Origin: Escherichia coli
Lineage (GTDB): Bacteria > Pseudomonadota > Gammaproteobacteria > Enterobacterales > Enterobacteriaceae
NCBI RefSeq assembly: GCF_003334405.1
Contig: NZ_QOWM01000003.1
Reading direction: 5' to 3' (one strand)
DNA length: 64,000 nt
Shown here: positions 65 to 61,820 of the stretch, in pieces
Layout of the letters: each line of letters begins with the position of its first letter
How positions within the stretch are numbered: position 1 is the stretch's first letter
Translations under genes and position numbers: made by a program
The notes under the pieces: generated by a model
Told to the model about the DNA's origin: nothing
Database searches by the model: none
The model's input: the letters and a program-made list of their open reading frames with translations, nothing else

Positions 65-1194
65 TCAGGCTACCTCATCTTTATCCAGCATGTTGAATTT
101 GTATGCAGTATAAACGTTCATGTTCTTATTAAAGTAGTACCAGGTACCAACTTCAATGTAGTTCACACGGTCAGCGTCAACATATCTATGTCCGGGTACC
201 CCTTTGATATCTTTACCTTTAGAGTACACATAACCTAAGGACGGACGCAGACCAAAGTCGAATTGATACTGAACAACCGCTTCAAAGTTCTGGGTTTCAT
301 TGATAAGTTGATCACGCATTATTGTATTGCCTTCTCGATCGGCAACACCTGTATCAATAGAACCCGGAGTCATATTACGAGTTTCGCCGTACATTACAGC
401 TGCGTAGACATTTTTCGCGTCATACTTTGCAGCCAATGACCACAGTTCAGCATTTGAACCGTTTCCATCGGCAACTTGATCGTTGGTGCGATCAGATTTG
501 CTATATGCACCAACGATACCAAAACCATTGATGTTATAGTCTACAGACAACGCATAGCCGTCACCATTTTGTTTCTTAGTGCTACGGTTGCTGTTTTTGC
601 CTTGGTACTGAATCGCAAAATCAAGACCATCAACCAGGCCAAAGAAATCATAGTTACGGTAGGTTGCAACACCGTTGGTACGACCATTCATGAAGTTGTC
701 AGCGGAAGCCCAGGAATCGCCACCCCATTCAACTAACATATCGGTATAAGCTGCGGCATCATAAGCAACACCGTAGTTACGGCATAGTCAAATGATCCTA
801 ACTCGTTATATTTCAAACCGGCGAAGGTTAAACGGGTTTTTTCTTGGTTTTCACCTTCGGGCTTGCTGGCGTCGAGGTTGTATTCAAACTGACCAAAACC
901 AGTCAGTTCGCTGGTGATTTGGGTTTCACCTTTAACACCGAAACGAGCATAGGAGGTATCTTCGTTTTCGCTGTTATTATCATCAGTATTTGACCAGATG
1001 CGTTCGCCAACCATCTTGCCGTAGAAATCAACTTTATTGCCATCTTTATTATAAATTTCAGCCGCATTTGCTGCGCCAGCAACTAATAACGCCGGGACCA
1101 GCATTGCCAGAACTTTTCTTTTCATTATGTATTCCCTTGTGATTATAATCTTCATGAATATATCAATAAGTGCCGTTATCCAAAAAAAGCACAT
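65..1194 (-). pseudogene. yedS: OmpC/PhoE-family general porin, disrupted (YedS-like)
   Basis: Minus-strand ORFs 733..1194 (signal peptide [21 protein letters not shown]) and 65..739 ([23 protein letters not shown] porin motif) form one porin split by a 1-base frameshift near 783-786; C-terminus ends ...MLDKDEVA without the usual terminal Phe. Confidence 0.8.
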
Positions 1195-7156: not shown

Positions 7157-9681
<2,525 letters not shown>

Positions 9682-27821: not shown

Positions 27822-28235
27822 ATGAAAAAACTCGCAATTGCAGGTGCGCTCATGTTGCTGGCGGGCTGTGCCGAAGTCGAAAACTATAACAATGTCGTGA
27901 AAACCCCCGCGCCGGACTGGCTGGCGGGCTACTGGCAGACCAAAGGGCCGCAACGTGCGTTGGTCAGTCCGGAAGCGATAGGCAGCCTCATTGTCACTAA
28001 AGAGGGCGATACCCTGGATTGCCGTCAGTGGCAGCGGGTGATTGCCGTGCCGGGTAAGTTGACATTGATGTCTGATGATCTCACTAACGTTACCGTAAAA
28101 CGTGAGCTGTACGAGGTTGAGCGTGACGGTAACACCATTGAGTACGATGGTATGACGATGGAGCGTGTGGATCGCCCGACGGCAGAGTGTGCCGCCGCGC
28201 TGGATAAAGCGCCGTTACCGACGCCACTGCCGTAA
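27822..28235 (+). CDS. yedD: Lipoprotein YedD
   Basis: Signal peptide plus lipobox LLAGC; tandem ATGs at 27819/27822. Confidence 0.85.
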   Translation: MKKLAIAGALMLLAGCAEVENYNNVVKTPAPDWLAGYWQTKGPQRALVSPEAIGSLIVTKEGDTLDCRQWQRVIAVPGKLTLMSDDLTNVTVKRELYEVERDGNTIEYDGMTMERVDRPTAECAAALDKAPLPTPLP

Positions 28236-28244
28236 TGAAATCTC

Positions 28245-28263
28245 CCCGGCTTGCCGCCGGGGA
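28245..28263. terminator. Hairpin between convergent yedD and amyA
   Basis: Inverted repeat CCCCGGC ttgcc GCCGGGG. Confidence 0.5.
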
Positions 28264-28268
28264 TGGAT

Positions 28269-29756
28269 TTAAATCACCTCTTCGATAACCCACACGCTGA
28301 CGCTGCCGCCGTTGCAAAAGAAGGTCGCTTCGCCGTTTTCGTCTGTCACTACGCTCTCTTGCCGGTTCCCCAGAAAATCACGCCAGGTTTTATTGCCGTA
28401 ATTCTCTCCCAGATGAATGGTTTTTTCGCCATCATCTCCGTTCGACATGACCACCACGCAGCCGGGATATTCGTCGGTGCCACTGCGGCTAAAGGCAATG
28501 CAGTTCGGATGGTCGAAAAATAACGTCTGTACACCGTGGGCGAAACGCTGACGGGCGAGAATTAACTCATCAAGCTGTTCGATTATTGGCATATCTATCG
28601 GATAGGTTTGCCCGTCACCACCGACATCTTCGTAATGTGCACCGTAGAGGTCCGGATAGAACACCGAAGGAACGCCATTTTCCCGCAACAAAATTAAGGC
28701 ATACGCCAGCGGTTTAAACCACGGTTCGACGGGGGCTTCGAGGGCTTGCAACGGTTGGGTGTCGTGGTTGGCAACGAGGGTTACGGCGTGAAAAGGATCG
28801 GCTTCCACCAGCGTCCCAGTGAAGATCTGCGTCATGTCGTAGTCGCGACCCATGCGCGATGCTTCATGGAATTTCATCTGCAGCGGCGCATCAAACAGCA
28901 TGGTTTTGCCTTCCACCTGATCAATATACGTTTGCAGTTTATCGACTTCATGCGACCAGTATTCAGCCACAATAAACAACGGCTTTGGCGCAACTTCCTG
29001 TACGTGTTCGATCCACTCTTTATAAAACCATGCCGGAATATGTTTGACCGCATCAAGACGAAAGCCGTCGCATTGCGTTTGTTCCATCACCCAGCGCGCC
29101 CAGTATTTAATCTCTTCCGTCACGGCATGATTGCGAAAATCGATATTCTCCCCCATCAGATAATCGAAATTACCGAGTTCATCATCAACCTGATCGTTCC
29201 AGCCTTCTCCGGTATAGTCGTTAACAATTTTAAAAATGCCATCTTCATCAGGGTTTTCGATATGGTCGATACCGCTAAAACATTTGAAATCCCAGATAAA
29301 CTGCGAGTATTGCCCGGCACGAGCGGGGAAGGTGTAACGCGTCCAGCCTTCACACTCAATGATTTCTTCGTCAATTTGCGTACGGTCATCAGCATTTACA
29401 CGCTGCACGCGAATAGCTTCTTTTTCATCCGCGCCCATTTTGTGGTTGACTACCACGTCCAGCAGCACCGCAATGTCATTACGTTTCAGGGCGTCAATGG
29501 CGGCCAGCAGTTGTGCTTTATCACCATATTTAGTAGGGATGCTGCCTTTCTGATCAAACTCACCTAGATCAAATAAATCATAGGAGTCGTAGCCGACCGA
29601 ATAGCCGCCCGATGCGCCTTTATAGGCGGGCGGCAACCAGACCATATTGATACCAATATCATTAAAACCGTCTGCGCGCTCGGCCAGTTCAGGCCAGAGC
29701 TTACCGCCTTCCGGGTAATACCAGTGAAAACATTGTAACAGCGTGGGATTACGCAT
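28269..29756 (-). CDS. amyA: Cytoplasmic alpha-amylase AmyA (GH13)
   Basis: 495 aa, no signal peptide, GH13 motifs. Confidence 0.95.
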
Positions 29757-29833
29757 TCTTCGACTCCATTCAAGGGGAATATTAGAAGCGTAGCCGTAAT
29801 CGGATTATTCGCGAGCCATCGGCTCATTAAGAT

Positions 29834-30199
29834 TCAAAAGAGGTTATCCTGCGGAGCCAGCACAAAGCCGCCCTGATCGCCATAGGCACTTAACACCGAT
29901 TTTTGCACCGATGACTGACCGACCAGTTTCGCCAGTTCATCCATCCGAATCTGTAATAACTGTTTTACCTTGCTTTCGTTGTCGAGAATCAGGCGCAGCA
30001 TCGGGCGGAGCTGCTCCTGCATCGTAGTGGACGGGGCAACCTCTTCAGTCAGGTGTGCGATCTCCTGCACCGCATTCACATACGCCATTTCGCTGGTGAT
30101 GAGTTCGTCCCATTGTTCTTCCGTTGCCAGGCGTAACATGAGCTGGCTTTTTTCGACGAGTTGTTGCCAGGCGAAATACAAATGCGGTGCATTGTTCAT
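29834..30199 (-). CDS. fliT: Flagellar chaperone and anti-FlhDC factor FliT
   Basis: 121 aa. Confidence 0.93.
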
Positions 30200-30609
30200 C
30201 AGACTGGGTCCTGAATCAAAGAAGGGGAGAGTAAAGACTCTTTCCAGGCATCGGCAATATTGCGCATTAATGCTTCCACTTCTTCGACTGCGGAGACATC
30301 GTTACGTAAATTGGCTTGCAGCAAGCGCCTGACCATATAGCTATAAAGAGCAATCAAGTTTTGGGTTAATTCGTCTTTGCTCTCTTCATCAAGACTCACC
30401 CGCAGTCCGTTCTCAATGATGTTGATCGCTTTTGATAAAGAGACGCCTTTGCCTTGCTGATTGTTGTCCTGCATAAACAGGCGCGCTCTAACCAGTGCGC
30501 TCAGCACTCCATCAAATAGCATGGTGACCAGCTGCTGTTGGCTGGCGCTCATTACGGCGCTTTCGACGCCAATTTGTGCATAGGCCTGGGTGCCTTTTGC
30601 CGCGTACAT
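30199..30609 (-). CDS. fliS: Flagellin-specific chaperone FliS
   Basis: 136 aa. Confidence 0.95.
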
Positions 30610-30624
30610 AGTCTCTCCTGAAGA

Positions 30625-32040
30625 TTATTTCGAGTTGCTATTTGAGGTGTCGAACTGCTGTGTCAGATAGCTACTAGTGGAGTTCAGCGAGTTCATTAAC
30701 ACATCTAATTGGGTGAACTGGGCTTTATAGCGCGTCATTAAGGTATCGATACGTTCACTGGCTGCGTTGTACTGGTCGGTCAAATTATTCAGCGTTTTGC
30801 TGACGCCATCTTTTGCTGCCTGGATTATCCCGGTGGAAGAGAGCCAACTGGTCAGGTTGTTACTAATGCCGGTGGTTACCCCAGTACTTTTGCCGTCACC
30901 TATAAACATTTCACCGATACCAGCGGCATCATTTTTTAGCGCCGTTTGCAGTTTGTCGGTCGCGATTTCCAGCTTGCCGGTACTGGCATCGCTGGTAATG
31001 CCAATCTGTGCCAGCGTTTTATAGTTTGAACTGCTGTGAGTATTGGCGAGCAAGGTTTTAAGCTGAGTCTGGATGGTACGCAGTGTGGAGTCACCGAGTA
31101 ATGCGCCATTACTGGAGTCCTGACTTTCAGCTCCGGCATCGACAGCGGTGTATTTGGTTAAGCTGCTGAATGTATCCTGCAATGTGTTATAGGCATCCAC
31201 CCACGCTTTAACCGCATTTTCAGCTTTGGATGTGTCTTTACTGATGGTCAGTGTCTGATTACCGGTGGTGACGTCATTCAGGTTGAGGGTGATATCTTCC
31301 AGTGAGTCGCTGATAGTGTTACTGCTGTTTTCAATCTCAACGTTATTGACTGTCAGTTTGGCGTTTTGCGCGGTGACGCTTTCAATCATGCCATTGCTGC
31401 TATCACCCGGCGTTCCGTTGTAACCCATAAAACTTTCCAGGGCGCTGTCGCCGCTGACGCTAAGTTTCATAGCGTTATTGCTGCCCGTATCGTTAGCGGT
31501 GATGGACAGACGATATTCGCCGTTTCCCACATTGATGATACTGGCGCTGACACCAGCTTTGGCGTTGTTAATGGCATCGCGAATGCCGGAAAGTGACGAG
31601 TTACCCGCGCTGATATCAATCGTGACCGGATCTTTACCGCCGCCTTGTTGGATGGTCAGTACGCTATCGCTGGTGGCGATGGCGGCTTTACTGTCTTTTT
31701 GACTATTTTTTGTTGTCAGCGTCTGTGCCTGCGCCAGTTGGCTAACGCTAATGGTGTATTTCCCAGCAATCGCGCTGCCCGTGGTGGTGGCGCTGAAAGC
31801 CGATGAACTGCTGGTGGTTGAGGTGGCGGTAAATAAATCGGCTTTATTCAGTGCTGTGTTGGCTGTCTGGAAACTCTCTAGTGCACTTTTCAGCGTCCCG
31901 TAGGCGCTCAGTTTCGCGGTGTAAGAGCTTTGCTGTTTTGATATCGGCGTCAGGGTAGATTTTTCTGCCGCCTCCAGACTGTCAAGGATGCTGCTTAAGT
32001 CCAGCCCCGACCCAACCCCAAGCGTTGAAATACTAGCCAT
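30625..32040 (-). CDS. fliD: Flagellar filament cap protein FliD
   Basis: 471 aa with conserved N- and C-terminal heptad regions. Confidence 0.95.
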   Translation of the reverse strand: MASISTLGVGSGLDLSSILDSLEAAEKSTLTPISKQQSSYTAKLSAYGTLKSALESFQTANTALNKADLFTATSTTSSSSAFSATTTGSAIAGKYTISVSQLAQAQTLTTKNSQKDSKAAIATSDSVLTIQQGGGKDPVTIDISAGNSSLSGIRDAINNAKAGVSASIINVGNGEYRLSITANDTGSNNAMKLSVSGDSALESFMGYNGTPGDSSNGMIESVTAQNAKLTVNNVEIENSSNTISDSLEDITLNLNDVTTGNQTLTISKDTSKAENAVKAWVDAYNTLQDTFSSLTKYTAVDAGAESQDSSNGALLGDSTLRTIQTQLKTLLANTHSSSNYKTLAQIGITSDASTGKLEIATDKLQTALKNDAAGIGEMFIGDGKSTGVTTGISNNLTSWLSSTGIIQAAKDGVSKTLNNLTDQYNAASERIDTLMTRYKAQFTQLDVLMNSLNSTSSYLTQQFDTSNSNSK

Positions 32041-32084
32041 ATAGTTTCCTTAATCATGCGACGTGTATAGAACGAATACCGGGG

Positions 32085-32111
32085 TTATCGGCGTAAGCGG
32101 GGTAAAGTTTA
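32085..32111 (-). promoter_or_regulatory. Sigma-28 (FliA) promoter of fliDST
   Basis: On minus strand TAAACTTT-N11-GCCGATAA against consensus TAAAGTTT-N11-GCCGATAA. Confidence 0.7.
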
Positions 32112-32184
32112 CGATTTATTTTTTGCCTTAATGGCACGAACAGCAACGAGGAAGGGGAGTATTTCGACCGCTAGAAAAAAATTC

Positions 32185-32211
32185 TAAAGGTTGTGAGTGA
32201 CCAGACGATAA
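32185..32211 (+). promoter_or_regulatory. Sigma-28 (FliA) promoter of fliC
   Basis: TAAAGGTT-N11-GACGATAA, about 77 bp upstream of the fliC ATG. Confidence 0.7.
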
Positions 32212-32287
32212 CAGGGTTGACGGCGACGAAGCCGAAGGGTGGAAGCCCAATACTTAAACCGTAGACTTGAAAACAGGAAAATGAATT

Positions 32288-33337
32288 ATGGCACAAGTCA
32301 TTAATACCAACAGCCTCTCGCTGATCACTCAGAACAACATCAACAAAAACCAGTCTGCGCTGTCGACTTCTATCGAGCGCCTCTCTTCTGGTCTGCGTAT
32401 TAACAGCGCTAAAGATGACGCCGCGGGCCAGGCGATTGCTAACCGCTTTACTTCTAACATCAAAGGTCTGACTCAGGCCGCACGTAACGCCAACGACGGT
32501 ATTTCTCTGGCGCAGACGGCTGAAGGCGCGCTGTCAGAGATTAACAACAACTTGCAGCGTATTCGTGAACTGACCGTTCAGGCCTCTACCGGCACGAACT
32601 CTGATTCCGACCTGTCTTCTATTCAGGACGAAATCAAATCCCGTCTTGATGAAATTGACCGTGTATCTGGTCAGACCCAGTTCAACGGTGTGAACGTGCT
32701 GTCGAAAAACGATTCGATGAAGATTCAGATTGGTGCCAATGATAACCAGACGATCAGCATTGGCTTGCAACAAATCGACAGTACCACTTTGAATCTGAAA
32801 GGATTTACCGTGTCCGGCATGGCGGATTTCAGCGCGGCGAAACTGACGGCTGCTGATGGTACAGCAATTGCTGCTGCGGATGTCAAGGATGCTGGGGGTA
32901 AACAAGTCAATTTACTGTCTTACACTGACACCGCGTCTAACAGTACTAAATATGCGGTCGTTGATTCTGCAACCGGTAAATACATGGAAGCCACTGTAGT
33001 CATTACCGGTACGGCGGCGGCGGTAACTGTTGGTGCAGCGGAAGTGGCGGGAGCCGCTACAGCCGATCCGTTAAAAGCACTGGATGCCGCAATCGCTAAA
33101 GTCGACAAATTCCGCTCCTCCCTCGGTGCCGTTCAAAACCGTCTGGATTCTGCGGTCACCAACCTGAACAACACCACCACCAACCTGTCTGAAGCGCAGT
33201 CCCGTATTCAGGACGCCGACTATGCGACCGAAGTGTCCAACATGTCGAAAGCGCAGATTATCCAGCAGGCGGGCAACTCCGTGCTGTCTAAAGCCAACCA
33301 GGTACCGCAGCAAGTTCTGTCTCTGTTACAAGGCTAA
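32288..33337 (+). CDS. fliC: Flagellin FliC (short allele, 349 aa)
   Basis: Conserved flagellin N terminus MAQVINTNSLSLITQNNINKNQSAL and C terminus ...QVPQQVLSLLQG flanking a short Ala/Thr/Gly-rich central region. Confidence 0.95.
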   Translation: MAQVINTNSLSLITQNNINKNQSALSTSIERLSSGLRINSAKDDAAGQAIANRFTSNIKGLTQAARNANDGISLAQTAEGALSEINNNLQRIRELTVQASTGTNSDSDLSSIQDEIKSRLDEIDRVSGQTQFNGVNVLSKNDSMKIQIGANDNQTISIGLQQIDSTTLNLKGFTVSGMADFSAAKLTAADGTAIAAADVKDAGGKQVNLLSYTDTASNSTKYAVVDSATGKYMEATVVITGTAAAVTVGAAEVAGAATADPLKALDAAIAKVDKFRSSLGAVQNRLDSAVTNLNNTTTNLSEAQSRIQDADYATEVSNMSKAQIIQQAGNSVLSKANQVPQQVLSLLQG

Positions 33338-33355
33338 TGGCCTTAACCTGCCTGA

Positions 33356-33378
33356 CCCCGCTACCGGCGGGGTTTTTT
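33356..33378 (+). terminator. Intrinsic terminator of fliC
   Basis: Hairpin CCCCGC tacc GGCGGGG followed by T6. Confidence 0.8.
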
Positions 33379-33500
33379 CTGCCCGCAATTTACCGGTAAC
33401 CCCCAAATAACCCCTCATTTCACCCACTAATCGTCCGATTAAAAACCCTGCAGAAACGGATAATCATGCCGATAACTCATATAACGCAGGGCTGTTTATC

Positions 33501-34220
33501 GTGAATTCACTCTATACCGCTGAAGGTGTAATGGATAAACACTCGCTGTGGCAGCGTTATGTCCCGCTGGTGCGTCACGAAGCATTGCGCCTGCAGGTTC
33601 GACTGCCCGCGAGCGTGGAACTTGACGATCTGCTACAGGCGGGCGGCATTGGGTTACTTAATGCCGTCGAACGCTATGACGCCCTACAAGGAACGGCATT
33701 TACAACTTACGCAGTGCAGCGTATCCGTGGCGCTATGCTGGATGAACTTCGCAGCCGTGACTGGGTGCCGCGCAGCGTGCGACGCAACGCGCGTGAAGTG
33801 GCACAGGCAATAGGGCAACTGGAGCAGGAACTTGGCCGCAACGCCACGGAAACTGAGGTAGCGGAACGTTTAGGGATCGATATTGCCGATTATCGCCAAA
33901 TGTTGCTCGACACCAATAACAGCCAGCTCTTCTCCTACGATGAGTGGCGCGAAGAGCACGGCGATAGCATCGAACTGGTTACTGATGATCATCAGCGAGA
34001 AAACCCGCTACAACAACTGCTGGACAGTAATCTGCGTCAGCGGGTGATGGAAGCCATCGAAACGTTGCCGGAGCGCGAAAAACTGGTATTAACCCTCTAT
34101 TACCAGGAAGAGCTGAATCTCAAAGAGATTGGCGCGGTGCTGGAGGTCGGGGAATCGCGGGTCAGTCAGTTACACAGCCAGGCTATTAAACGGTTACGCA
34201 CTAAACTGGGTAAGTTATAA
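33501..34220 (+). CDS. fliA: Flagellar sigma factor FliA (sigma-28)
   Basis: 239 aa, sigma-70-family regions 2-4. Confidence 0.97.
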   Translation: MNSLYTAEGVMDKHSLWQRYVPLVRHEALRLQVRLPASVELDDLLQAGGIGLLNAVERYDALQGTAFTTYAVQRIRGAMLDELRSRDWVPRSVRRNAREVAQAIGQLEQELGRNATETEVAERLGIDIADYRQMLLDTNNSQLFSYDEWREEHGDSIELVTDDHQRENPLQQLLDSNLRQRVMEAIETLPEREKLVLTLYYQEELNLKEIGAVLEVGESRVSQLHSQAIKRLRTKLGKL

Positions 34221-43172: not shown

Positions 43173-43248
<76 letters not shown>

Positions 43249-43302
43249 GTTTAAAAGACATCGGCCTCAAGCGGATGTCTGGCTGAAAGGCCTGAAGAAT
43301 TT

Positions 43303-43376
43303 GGCGCGTTAACAAAGCGGTTATGTAGCGGATTGCAAATCCGTCTAGTCCGGTTCGACTCCGGAACGCGCCTCCA
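43303..43376 (+). tRNA. cysT: tRNA-Cys (GCA)
   Basis: 74 nt, anticodon loop ATTGCAAAT, 3' CCA. Confidence 0.95.
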
Positions 43377-43388
43377 CTTTCTTCCCGA

Positions 43389-43474
43389 GCCCGGATGGTG
43401 GAATCGGTAGACACAAGGGATTTAAAATCCCTCGGCGTTCGCGCTGTGCGGGTTCAAGTCCCGCTCCGGGTACC
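43389..43474 (+). tRNA. leuZ: tRNA-Leu (TAA)
   Basis: About 86 nt with long variable arm, anticodon loop ATTTAAAAT, 3' CCA. Confidence 0.93.
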
Positions 43475-43517
43475 ATGGGAAAGATAAGAATAAAATCAAA
43501 GCAATAAGCAGTGTCGT

Positions 43518-47859: not shown

Positions 47860-48363
47860 TCAATGCAGCTGGTGTGACACGACATTCAGAACATGTTGGT
47901 CGGTCTGCACAGGGCACATACCCGCAAGTTTCGCACTGCGCACTTCATCAAGAATGGTTTGCAGCAACAGACCATCATGCTGCTGTTCTTTTTCCAGATC
48001 GCGCAGGAAATTGACGGTTGAATCATCATTCAGTTCTTTCGCTTCATCGGCTAACTGTGCCAACGTACTAGAACGTTGCTCGTATTCTTCCATCGTTTTT
48101 TGGAACAGTTCTTCCAGAGAGTTCAGTTTTTCACCGGGAACATCAATGGCTTTAACGATGGGGGTAGCGCCGACACTCTTCATAAAGTTAAACATGCGCA
48201 TCATTTGGGTCACATTACTCTGTGCCTGGGCGCGAAGGAAAGTGGCGGTGCCGTTCAGACTCTGTTCAGAACACCAGTTACTCAGGTGAAGGTAGAGATT
48301 GGATGCGTAAAACTCGCGGTTCATTTGAGAGTTGAGTTTGAGAAGCATTCCAGCGGTTGCCAT
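47860..48363 (-). CDS. ftnB: Ferritin-like protein FtnB
   Basis: 167-aa ferritin-fold protein. Confidence 0.92.
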
Positions 48364-49159
48364 ACCTAATATCCTTATATCCAGAAGTGGAGAGGTGCAA
48401 GATAAATCAAAACACCATAATTACTGTTTGCAGAATAATTCCTTTCTGCCGGTCCGAAATGTGATCGTGGAGTCAATTCTGACGATGATCTGAAATAAGA
48501 ATAACGTCTGAACGGGTATAAGAAAATGCTTAAATCATCAAGTTTATATATTTTTACATTTCATTGATGAAATCAATGTAACTGCAATGAATTTTAATGA
48601 TAGTGCTTTTTGTATCTTGTTGATATTAATCAATGAATTTGAATTCATGATGAAGTGATGATTTTATAAAACGTTTTTTCATTTTTGCGAGATGGCTCTC
48701 ATTATACGTGTTCTGTTAATTAATGAGCACAGTGATAATTAATGACGAAATGAATGACGTGCATTTTCCACATCTTTGAGTTGCGGTTATTACACCATTT
48801 CAAAAACTCAACGCCAGGTAATGCGGCCTATTGACTGGTTAAAAAGAAGACATCCCGCATGGGTACCAAAGACAACAAGGATTTCCAGGCTAATCTTATG
48901 GATTAATCTGCTGTGCATTCGACAATTTGTCTGACAAATTGGCTTTCCCTTATGTCTTTTCCCGCTAAATTTATGCACGTTCTCACTGTAATTCTGCGAT
49001 GTGATATTGCTCTCCTATGGAGAATTAATTTCTCGCTAAAACTATGTCAACACAGTCACTTATCTTTTAGTTAAAAGGTAATGCTTTGTTTTCCGATTAA
49101 TTTAACGAATGTCATTCGTTTTTGCCCTACACAAAACGACACTAAAGCTGGAGAGAACC

Positions 49160-50149
49160 ATGCACAAATTTACTAAAGCCCTGGCAGCCATTGGTCTGGC
49201 AGCCGTTATGTCACAATCCGCTATGGCGGAGAACCTGAAGCTCGGTTTTCTGGTGAAGCAACCGGAAGAGCCGTGGTTCCAGACCGAATGGAAGTTTGCC
49301 GATAAAGCCGGGAAGGATTTAGGGTTTGAGGTTATTAAGATTGCCGTGCCGGATGGCGAAAAAACATTGAACGCGATCGACAGCCTGGCTGCCAGTGGCG
49401 CAAAAGGTTTCGTTATTTGTACTCCGGACCCCAAACTCGGCTCTGCCATCGTCGCGAAAGCGCGTGGCTACGATATGAAAGTCATTGCCGTGGATGACCA
49501 GTTTGTTAACGCCAAAGGTAAGCCAATGGATACCGTTCCGCTGGTGATGATGGCGGCGACTAAAATTGGCGAACGTCAGGGCCAGGAACTGTATAAAGAG
49601 ATGCAGAAACGTGGCTGGGATGTCAAAGAAAGCGCGGTGATGGCGATTACCGCCAACGAACTGGATACCGCCCGCCGCCGTACTACGGGATCTATGGATG
49701 CGCTGAAAGCGGCCGGATTCCCGGAAAAACAAATTTATCAGGTACCTACCAAATCTAACGACATCCCGGGGGCATTTGACGCTGCCAACTCAATGCTGGT
49801 TCAACATCCGGAAGTTAAACATTGGCTGATCGTCGGTATGAACGACAGCACCGTGCTGGGCGGCGTACGCGCGACGGAAGGTCAGGGCTTTAAAGCGGCC
49901 GATATCATCGGCATTGGCATTAACGGTGTGGATGCGGTGAGCGAACTGTCTAAAGCACAGGCAACCGGCTTCTACGGTTCCCTGCTGCCAAGCCCGGACG
50001 TACATGGCTATAAATCCAGCGAAATGCTTTACAACTGGGTAGCAAAAGACGTTGAACCGCCAAAATTTACCGAAGTTACCGACGTGGTACTGATCACGCG
50101 TGACAACTTTAAAGAAGAACTGGAGAAAAAAGGTTTAGGCGGTAAGTAA
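49160..50149 (+). CDS. araF: L-arabinose-binding periplasmic protein AraF
   Basis: 329 aa from MHKFTKALAAIGLAAVMSQSAMA. Confidence 0.97.
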   Translation: MHKFTKALAAIGLAAVMSQSAMAENLKLGFLVKQPEEPWFQTEWKFADKAGKDLGFEVIKIAVPDGEKTLNAIDSLAASGAKGFVICTPDPKLGSAIVAKARGYDMKVIAVDDQFVNAKGKPMDTVPLVMMAATKIGERQGQELYKEMQKRGWDVKESAVMAITANELDTARRRTTGSMDALKAAGFPEKQIYQVPTKSNDIPGAFDAANSMLVQHPEVKHWLIVGMNDSTVLGGVRATEGQGFKAADIIGIGINGVDAVSELSKAQATGFYGSLLPSPDVHGYKSSEMLYNWVAKDVEPPKFTEVTDVVLITRDNFKEELEKKGLGGK

Positions 50150-50218
50150 TTTGCCGGAAAAATTCCCCTCTGCATGATGCAGAGGGGGTGTGAACGACCA
50201 GTGATTCACGGAGACGTT

Positions 50219-51733
50219 ATGCAACAGTCTACCCCGTATCTCTCATTTCGCGGCATCGGTAAAACGTTTCCCGGCGTTAAGGCGCTGACGGATATTAGTT
50301 TTGACTGCTATGCCGGTCAGGTTCATGCGTTGATGGGTGAAAATGGCGCAGGAAAATCAACTCTCTTAAAAATCCTCAGCGGCAACTATGCGCCAACCAC
50401 GGGTTCTGTAGTGATTAATGGGCAGGAAATGTCCTTTTCCGACACGACCGCAGCACTTAACGCGGGCGTGGCGATTATTTACCAGGAACTGCATCTCGTG
50501 CCGGAAATGACCGTCGCGGAAAACATCTATCTCGGCCAGCTGCCGCATAAAGGCGGCATTGTGAATCGCTCATTGCTGAATTATGAGGCGGGTTTACAAC
50601 TTAAACATCTTGGTATGGATATTGACCCGGACACGCCGCTGAAATATCTCTCCATTGGTCAGTGGCAGATGGTTGAAATCGCCAAAGCGCTGGCGCGTAA
50701 CGCCAAAATTATCGCCTTTGATGAGCCAACCAGCTCCCTCTCTGCCCGTGAAATCGACAATCTTTTCCGCGTTATTCGTGAACTGCGAAAAGAGGGGCGG
50801 GTAATCTTATACGTTTCTCACCGTATGGAAGAAATATTTGCCCTCAGCGATGCCATTACTGTCTTTAAAGATGGACGTTATGTCAAAACCTTTACCGATA
50901 TGCAGCAGGTTGACCACGACGCGCTGGTGCAGGCGATGGTCGGGCGCGACATTGGCGATATCTACGGCTGGCAACCGCGTAGTTATGGCGAGGAGCGCCT
51001 ACGTCTTGATGCTGTGAAAGCACCAGGCGTGCGTACGCCAATAAGTCTGGCGGTTCGCAGTGGTGAAATTGTTGGGCTGTTTGGTCTGGTAGGGGCGGGG
51101 CGTAGCGAATTAATGAAAGGCATGTTTGGCGGGACGCAAATCACCGCCGGTCAGGTTTATATCGACCAACAGCCGATCGATATTCGTAAACCGAGCCACG
51201 CCATTGCCGCAGGCATGATGCTCTGCCCGGAAGATCGCAAAGCGGAAGGCATTATTCCCGTGCACTCCGTTCGCGACAATATCAACATCAGTGCCAGACG
51301 TAAACATGTGCTCGGCGGTTGTGTAATCAACAACGGTTGGGAAGAAAACAATGCCGATCACCACATTCGTTCGCTCAACATCAAAACGCCGGGCGCGGAG
51401 CAACTGATCATGAATCTCTCAGGCGGAAATCAGCAAAAAGCCATTCTGGGCCGCTGGTTATCGGAAGAGATGAAGGTCATTTTGCTGGATGAACCTACGC
51501 GCGGCATTGATGTTGGCGCTAAGCACGAAATATATAACGTAATTTATGCGCTGGCGGCGCAGGGCGTGGCGGTGCTGTTTGCCTCCAGCGACTTACCTGA
51601 AGTCCTCGGCGTTGCCGACCGGATTGTGGTGATGCGGGAAGGTGAAATCGCCGGTGAATTGTTACACGAGCAGGCAGATGAGCGTCAGGCACTGAGCCTT
51701 GCGATGCCTAAAGTCAGCCAGGCTGTTGCCTGA
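50219..51733 (+). CDS. araG: L-arabinose ABC transporter ATPase AraG
   Basis: 504 aa with two ABC cassettes ([17 protein letters not shown]). Confidence 0.97.
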
Positions 51734-51747
51734 GTAAGGAGAGTATG

Positions 51748-55100
<3,353 letters not shown>

Positions 55101-55106
55101 GAGCGG

Positions 55107-55535
55107 TTAATCTCCCGTAAGTGGAACTAACAGCACATCGACCTCACTTGAGGCAATAACTCTTTTCGCCGAGCAGGATGCTCGCGAAAAGAAACTGTGA
55201 TTGTGATTACCGCAAATCACCAAATCGAAATGATGCTTGTGACATACTTCCAGAATATGTTCGCTTAACTCACCGTAGGCAATAAACGTCTTGTCAACGG
55301 GATACCCCGCATCCTGAATTAACTTATCAAGAAAGCTTTGCGTTTCTTCCTGCATCACGCTGCGTAAATCTTCAAGCATCGGCGCAGCTAATTGATTGTA
55401 CATTTCCGGGTCGGAAGCGAGAGTAATTAAACTGATGTGTCCCTTTACTGGCCTGGCGATAGATACCGCTTTTGCCAGCAGTTGCTGACTTTCCGGTGTA
55501 ACCGCAACAGCGACAAGAATATTGCTATAGCTCAT
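55107..55535 (-). CDS. uspC: Universal stress protein UspC
   Basis: 142-aa Usp-fold protein. Confidence 0.93.
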   Translation of the reverse strand: MSYSNILVAVAVTPESQQLLAKAVSIARPVKGHISLITLASDPEMYNQLAAPMLEDLRSVMQEETQSFLDKLIQDAGYPVDKTFIAYGELSEHILEVCHKHHFDLVICGNHNHSFFSRASCSAKRVIASSEVDVLLVPLTGD

Positions 55536-56314
55536 AACCTGTTCCTTATTCTGTGAACTTCAGGTGACATTAAAGCTTTACTCCTAATGGAGAAACGACG
55601 CAATCCCAACTCGGTCAAACAGGTAAATATTAGTCTGATTATTAGTAAAGACAATTAATCAATCACTCCCGGTGATCATATAATTTCAAATGTAATTATA
55701 AGAAAATAGTGTACTGATTCTCCGCATTAAACAAGTGGTTAATATATGTAAAACATTTCATTAACATTAAGTTGATTGTTGCCTTTCTTTGTATTTAATT
55801 AGTTTGTTGTGCGGTAAGTGTCTGTTTAAAAATAGCTTATCTGGTATTGCATGAAAGTGATTATTTATAGCAGATGATTATTTACGGTGAGTTATTTTGA
55901 CTGTGCGCAACATCCCATTTCGATTATTCCTGTTTCATTTTTGCTTGCTAGCGTAGCGAAAAACTTTTTAACAGATTGAAATACACCCAAAACAAAAGTA
56001 TGACTTATACATTTATGTTAAGTAATTGAGTGTTTTGTGTGATCTGCATCACGCATTATTGAAAATCGCAGCCCCCCTCCGTTGTATGTGCGTGTAGTGA
56101 CGAGTACAGTTGCGTCGATTTAGGAAAAATCTTAGATAAGTGTAAAGACCCATTTCTATTTGTAAGGACATATTAAACCAAAAAGGTGGTTCTGCTTATT
56201 GCAGCTTATCGCAACTATTCTAATGCTAATTATTTTTTACCGGGGCTTCCCGGCGACATCACGGGGTGCGGTGAAACCGCATAAAAATAAAGTTGGTTAT
56301 TCTGGGTGGGAATA
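55536..56314 (+). promoter_or_regulatory. flhDC control region (promoter and long 5' UTR)
   Basis: 779-bp AT-rich non-coding interval with no ORF and no IS sequence. Confidence 0.8.
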
Positions 56315-56665
56315 ATGCATACCTCCGAGTTGCTGAAACACATTTATGACATCAACTTGTCATATTTACTACTTGCACAGCGTTTGATTGTTCAGGACAA
56401 AGCGTCCGCTATGTTTCGTCTCGGCATAAATGAAGAAATGGCGACAACGTTAGCGGCACTGACTCTTCCGCAAATGGTTAAGCTGGCAGAAACCAATCAA
56501 CTGGTTTGTCACTTCCGTTTTGACAGCCACCAGACGATTACTCAGTTGACGCAAGATTCCCGCGTTGACGATCTCCAGCAAATTCATACCGGCATCATGC
56601 TCTCAACACGCTTGCTGAATGATGTTAATCAGCCTGAAGAAGCGCTGCGCAAGAAAAGGGCCTGA
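56315..56665 (+). CDS. flhD: Flagellar master regulator FlhD
   Basis: 116 aa from [24 protein letters not shown]. Confidence 0.97.
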
Positions 56666-61789: not shown

Positions 61790-61820
61790 CGAGATCAACT
61801 TGTTTTCAGGAAGGTGCCTT

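Follow-up and report, generated by a model that had tools for sequence, protein, structure and literature searches.

Which H antigen does an Escherichia coli flagellin of only 349 residues represent, and is so short a protein a native form of the filament subunit? The question is raised by the fliC gene at 32288..33337 (plus strand) in a 64,000-nucleotide stretch of contig NZ_QOWM01000003.1, hereafter the window. The first-pass annotation had described this open reading frame (ORF) as a short flagellin with conserved termini and as an H-antigen allele different from that of K-12. The ORF list contains it at exactly these coordinates; it starts with ATG, spans 1050 bp including the stop codon, and is free of frameshifts and of internal or premature stop codons. 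We consider it nearly certain that this gene is the chromosomal H4 allele of fliC, which encodes the filament subunit and has spread together with fliD by recombination.

The assignment to H4 is carried by sequence identity, length, and mass. At 100% identity over all 1050 nucleotides, the gene matches its counterpart in strains that are labelled O104:H4 (FDAARGOS_348/349), O78:H4, and O25:H4 of sequence type 131 (ST131), and no difference to the gene in these genomes was detected; the published range of identity within the H4 type is 97.6–100%. The same protein accession, WP_000079759.1, is found in the ST131 strain 81009 and in O104:H4 FDAARGOS_349. The fliC-H4 genes of reference and field strains all comprise 1050 bp and encode 349 residues with a mass of 36.3 kDa, while the H48 flagellin of K-12 has 498 residues and 51.3 kDa (Beutin 2005, PMC548302). 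The masses that we computed, 36.3 kDa for the window protein and 51.3 kDa for K-12 FliC, coincide with these values. As length and mass equal those published for fliC-H4 and the sequence is identical to that of H4 strains, the gene is the known H4 allele, and the claim of a non-K-12 H type is borne out. Compared via the published values and the H4-labelled genomes, it also agrees in length, mass, and locus with fliC-H4 of the type strain U9-41 (AB028472).

The allele is common. Among 5426 complete E. coli genomes, 761 contain a match that covers at least 80% of the gene, and 741 carry a copy at ≥99% identity. The similarity extends well beyond fliC, since the 24-kb context matches O78:H4 avian-pathogenic strains and several other strains with 100.0% identity and the O104:H4 outbreak lineage with 99.8%. 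O25:H4 and O25b:H4-ST131 records were also matched in searches with the fliC 3′ junction and with fliD. The source strain can thus be assigned the flagellar genotype H4, with O78:H4 avian-pathogenic and related genomes as its closest relatives, an assignment of practical value only. H4 is nonetheless the type of flagellum found in lineages of medical importance, namely O104:H4 and O25b:H4-ST131. Neither the allele nor its size or functionality is new, all three having been described two decades ago: cloned fliC-H4 was expressed in K-12 JM109, where H4 flagella and filaments were formed (Beutin 2005, PMC548302). We take H4 serology and filament formation from this literature, and infer expression in the source strain.

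A strain that bears fliC-H4 might, however, build its filament from another flagellin, for example H17 encoded by flnA on a genomic islet, with H4 remaining silent or phase-variable as in the reference strain P12b. H17 strains indeed all carry the fliC-H4 gene (Beutin 2005, PMC548302; Liu 2012), and the 64 kb of the window leave loci elsewhere in the genome outside view. Yet the genomes most similar over 24 kb bear the labels O78:H4 and O104:H4. Moreover, fliC of P12b deviates from the H4 type strain at 7 of 1050 nucleotides (Beutin 2005, PMC548302), whereas the window gene is the common H4 form present in hundreds of genomes. Further, no flagellin-repressor or islet genes are seen in the K-12-collinear part of the window from 7.2 to 56.5 kb (except 22.6–25.7 kb) or in the ORF lists of both ends. 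We regard expression of a different flagellin as very improbable, and fliC-H4 as the gene that would supply the filament in the source strain.

The product is a regular member of the flagellin family. It matches the NCBIfam model NF005294 (“FliC/FljB family flagellin”) with 497.1 bits and an E-value of 4e-149 at a cut-off of 387, which is far beyond chance. Representatives of near-identical protein clusters carry PF00669 and PF00700, and a phmmer search against flagellins in the PDB returns an E-value of 2e-134. Relative to K-12 FliC (H48, PDB 8cxm), locus and regulation are alike and the termini are conserved: 158 of the 176 N-terminal residues (90%) and 88 of the last 92 residues (96%) are identical, as anticipated by the annotators' reading of the termini as standard. 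In contrast, the centre of the K-12 protein is 149 residues longer and unalignable, so that the alignment contains 149 gap columns and the entire difference in length between 349 and 498 residues is central. A return of the K-12 type H48 had been named as the outcome that would overturn the assignment to a different allele; the unalignable centres exclude it.

The protein can be divided into three parts. The conserved N-terminal part (residues 1–176; 32288..32815, plus strand) comprises the D0/D1 helices and a β-hairpin, and the conserved C-terminal part (residues 262–349; 33071..33337, plus strand) contains the D1/D0 helices and is followed by the stop codon. Between them lies the variable, serotype-determining core of 85 residues (177–261; 32816..33070, plus strand), for which a small all-β surface domain is predicted. 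The core consists of 27% Ala, 13% Thr, and 9% Gly, and the sum of 49% for these three residues, compared to 23% in each terminus, agrees with its initial description as an Ala/Thr/Gly-rich region of about 85 residues. In the AlphaFold2 (AF2) model, the N-terminal helices extend over residues 5–39, 45–100, and 106–129 and the C-terminal helices over residues 261–312 and 318–348, while the strands of the core span residues ~199–252 with a predicted local distance difference test (pLDDT) score of 80–92. Modelled alone, the core reaches a mean pLDDT of 83.6. The best Foldseek match of the full-length model is Salmonella FliC with the D3 domain deleted (Δ204–292, PDB 9iwq; E 2.8e-24, 53% identity), which likewise combines D0–D1 with a reduced outer part. 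From these models, we predict that the core folds into a single small β domain at the surface of the filament. The conserved terminal helices of D0/D1 would form the core of the filament and contain the signals for export and polymerisation, while the single surface domain would bear the H4 epitopes, a D3-like second outer domain being absent. The fliC product would serve as the major filament subunit, made from a chromosomal gene in its H4 allelic form.

Compact flagellins of this kind also occur in other genera. End-to-end matches of 349–365 residues with 73–89% identity are found in “Enterobacteriaceae bacterium FGI 57”, Pantoea, Pluralibacter gergoviae, and Enterobacter. The similarity is not confined to the termini: the 85-residue core alone matches the FGI 57 protein with 75% identity (E 2e-40) and that of Pluralibacter gergoviae with 46% identity (E 2e-14), and gives a weaker local match in Enterobacter hormaechei (E 1e-6). 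Overall, the compact FliC/FljB flagellins of other Enterobacteriaceae, although from different species, share a homologous core that has diverged to 33–77% identity. A recent internal deletion of a longer flagellin, degenerate or laboratory-like, would leave a protein that is, like the window FliC, 149 residues below K-12 FliC with a wholly central loss, and engineered central deletions stay functional in the cases mentioned in Hu and Reeves 2020 (Kuwajima 1988 as cited in PMC7018530) and represented by PDB 9iwq, but the sequence recurs at the identical length of 1050 bp in the 741 complete genomes, its core is modelled with confidence as a single compact domain, and the conservation of both the compact form and the core across genera rules such a deletion out. 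The short gene is thus a native allele.

The core homologues touch on a published view, since it has been stated that no form of the E. coli variable region is significantly similar to that of any other species (Hu and Reeves 2020, PMC7018530). With this statement, the matches of the H4 core in other genera sit awkwardly.

The H4 allele is embedded in a larger shared tract. Compared to ST131 strain 81009, the window is 99.2–100% identical from ~21 to 33.4 kb (~12 kb; approximate extent 21000..33400 by sliding identity and mismatch list, no strand assigned), while identity is 97–98% on either side. Not a single mismatch occurs between 30861 and 33361, and the right-hand edge of the shared tract lies just past fliC. 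This profile is characteristic of a fliC-fliD haplotype that has recombined and is common to distant backgrounds, including ST131 of phylogroup B2. It is consistent with the established view that H antigens are exchanged (Hu and Reeves 2020, PMC7018530). According to our proposal, the H4 allele would move together with its neighbour fliD, and homologous recombination would have spread the haplotype over the phylogroups of E. coli.

The filament cap gene fliD (30625..32040, minus strand; 471 residues) itself belongs to a divergent allele class. Its product is assigned by the ORF and by the FliD equivalog model NF005955 (685 bits, cut-off 387). In the K-12 reference, fliC comprises 1497 bp (498 residues) and fliD 1407 bp (468 residues), so that both lengths initially given for K-12 were correct. 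FliD had been noted as slightly longer than its K-12 counterpart. While the three additional residues are confirmed, this wording understates the difference: only 372 of 471 residues (79%) are identical, and DNA identity to K-12 falls to about 74% (72–76%) across fliD compared to 97–99% in the flanks. The window class of fliD is present in 1323 of the 5426 genomes, in 994 of them at ≥99% identity. As megablast finds no match to it in any of the other genomes, fliD is, at the sequence level, divided into deep allele classes, of which the one in the window is H4-associated but not H4-exclusive.

Apart from these alleles, the locus is organized as in K-12, and the order fliT-fliS-fliD, divergent from fliC-fliA-fliZ-tcyJ-dcyD, corresponds to that of E. 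coli K-12. The chaperone genes for flagellin and FliD export together span 29834..30609 (minus strand), with fliS at 30199..30609 (136 codons) and fliT at 29834..30199 (121 codons), both identified from the ORF list and their K-12 order. Directly 3′ of fliC follows fliA (33501..34220, plus strand), which encodes σ28 of 239 residues in a region that is 100% identical to K-12. Thus, fliC is located between the divergent fliD and fliA and is preceded by a σ28 class-3 promoter motif.

This motif, TAAAGGTT-N-GACGATAA (32185..32211, plus strand), was identified by pattern match 76 nt before the start codon of fliC and lies in a block conserved with K-12. A second motif, TAAACTTT-N11-GCCGATAA (32085..32111, minus strand), is found upstream of fliD and is assigned to fliDST, and a third match lies upstream of an ORF at 61800. 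The three matches in the window compare with 0.44 expected, and all are upstream of flagellar or chemotaxis genes. On the opposite side of fliC, a terminator scan reveals an intrinsic terminator at 33354..33380 (plus strand), formed by a 9-bp GC-rich stem and a subsequent T run ~17 nt past the stop codon. Transcription of fliC would start at the FliA (σ28) class-3 promoter and end at this terminator just past the stop codon.

The region behind fliC differs from K-12 in its 3′ untranslated region (3′UTR). In K-12, the 195 nt 3′ of fliC are annotated as the small RNA FliX. K-12 FliX contains two repetitive extragenic palindromic (REP) elements, one of which is included in its active form of ~100 nt, FliX-S (Melamed 2023, PMC10578931). 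In the window, the 3′UTR measures ~45 nt and the spacer between fliC and fliA (33338–33500) 163 bp, where K-12 has 320 bp. Conservation is limited to the terminator hairpin and a few nucleotides upstream of it, while the ~150 nt that separate stop codon and hairpin in K-12 are absent, and with them the two REP elements, which account for most of K-12 FliX. Consequently, a FliX of the K-12 type, that is, a REP-containing 3′UTR of ~195 nt with two such elements that ends at the fliC terminator, is not present in the window.

A full-length K-12-type FliX is found in 3503 of the 5426 genomes, and the short REP-less junction in 826. Because this latter number is close to the 761 genomes with fliC-H4, the REP-less 3′UTR is for the most part a trait of the H4 haplotype. 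It is a tentative suggestion, to which we give limited credence, that the H4 haplotype lacks most or all of FliX and that its flagellar regulon operates without the negative feedback exerted by FliX; we hold with the same reserve the separate point that homologues of the H4 core in other genera are at odds with the published statement. If true, pandemic ST131 and O104:H4 would lack the Hfq-dependent FliX, a repressor of flagellar and S10-operon genes in K-12. Possible research value is confined to these two side points, the missing K-12-type FliX region and the cross-genus H4 surface domain.

Several further features of the window were observed. Within the left part of the tract shared with ST131, positions 22623–25654 are without a K-12 counterpart, K-12 having yedL, yedN′, and intG′ there; the equivalent in ST131 and O104:H4 records contains emrE, ybcL, ybcM, an IS200/IS605 transposase, and a truncated yedK. 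A tRNA cluster for Gly(GCC), Cys(GCA), and Leu(UAA) is located at 43173–43475. ST131 strain 81009 carries a prophage with its integrase directly after tRNA-Leu, whereas the window is K-12-collinear at this position and no prophage is inserted.

Downstream, a stretch of ~8.5 kb (48001–56512) shows 100.0% identity to K-12 MG1655 compared to 97–99% in the rest of the window, which suggests that it was recently shared or recombined. Its collinear counterpart in K-12 is the araFGH-otsBA-uspC-flhD upstream region. K-12 MG1655 carries the insertion element IS1H upstream of flhD; the window lacks it, and the K-12 alignment blocks abut at 56010–56017, where their 8-bp overlap fits a target-site duplication.

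Two genes near the left end are interrupted. The diguanylate cyclase gene dgcQ (yedQ; 7157–8851, plus strand), which regulates cellulose synthesis, contains an in-frame TAG at codon 312 (8090–8092) that splits it into ORFs of 311 and 251 residues; the O104:H4 record likewise annotates dgcQ as a pseudogene with an internal stop. An OmpF/PhoE-like porin gene beside rseX (65–1194, minus strand) is divided by a frameshift into ORFs of 153 and 224 residues and is probably a pseudogene, as presumably is yedS, the K-12 gene at this position.
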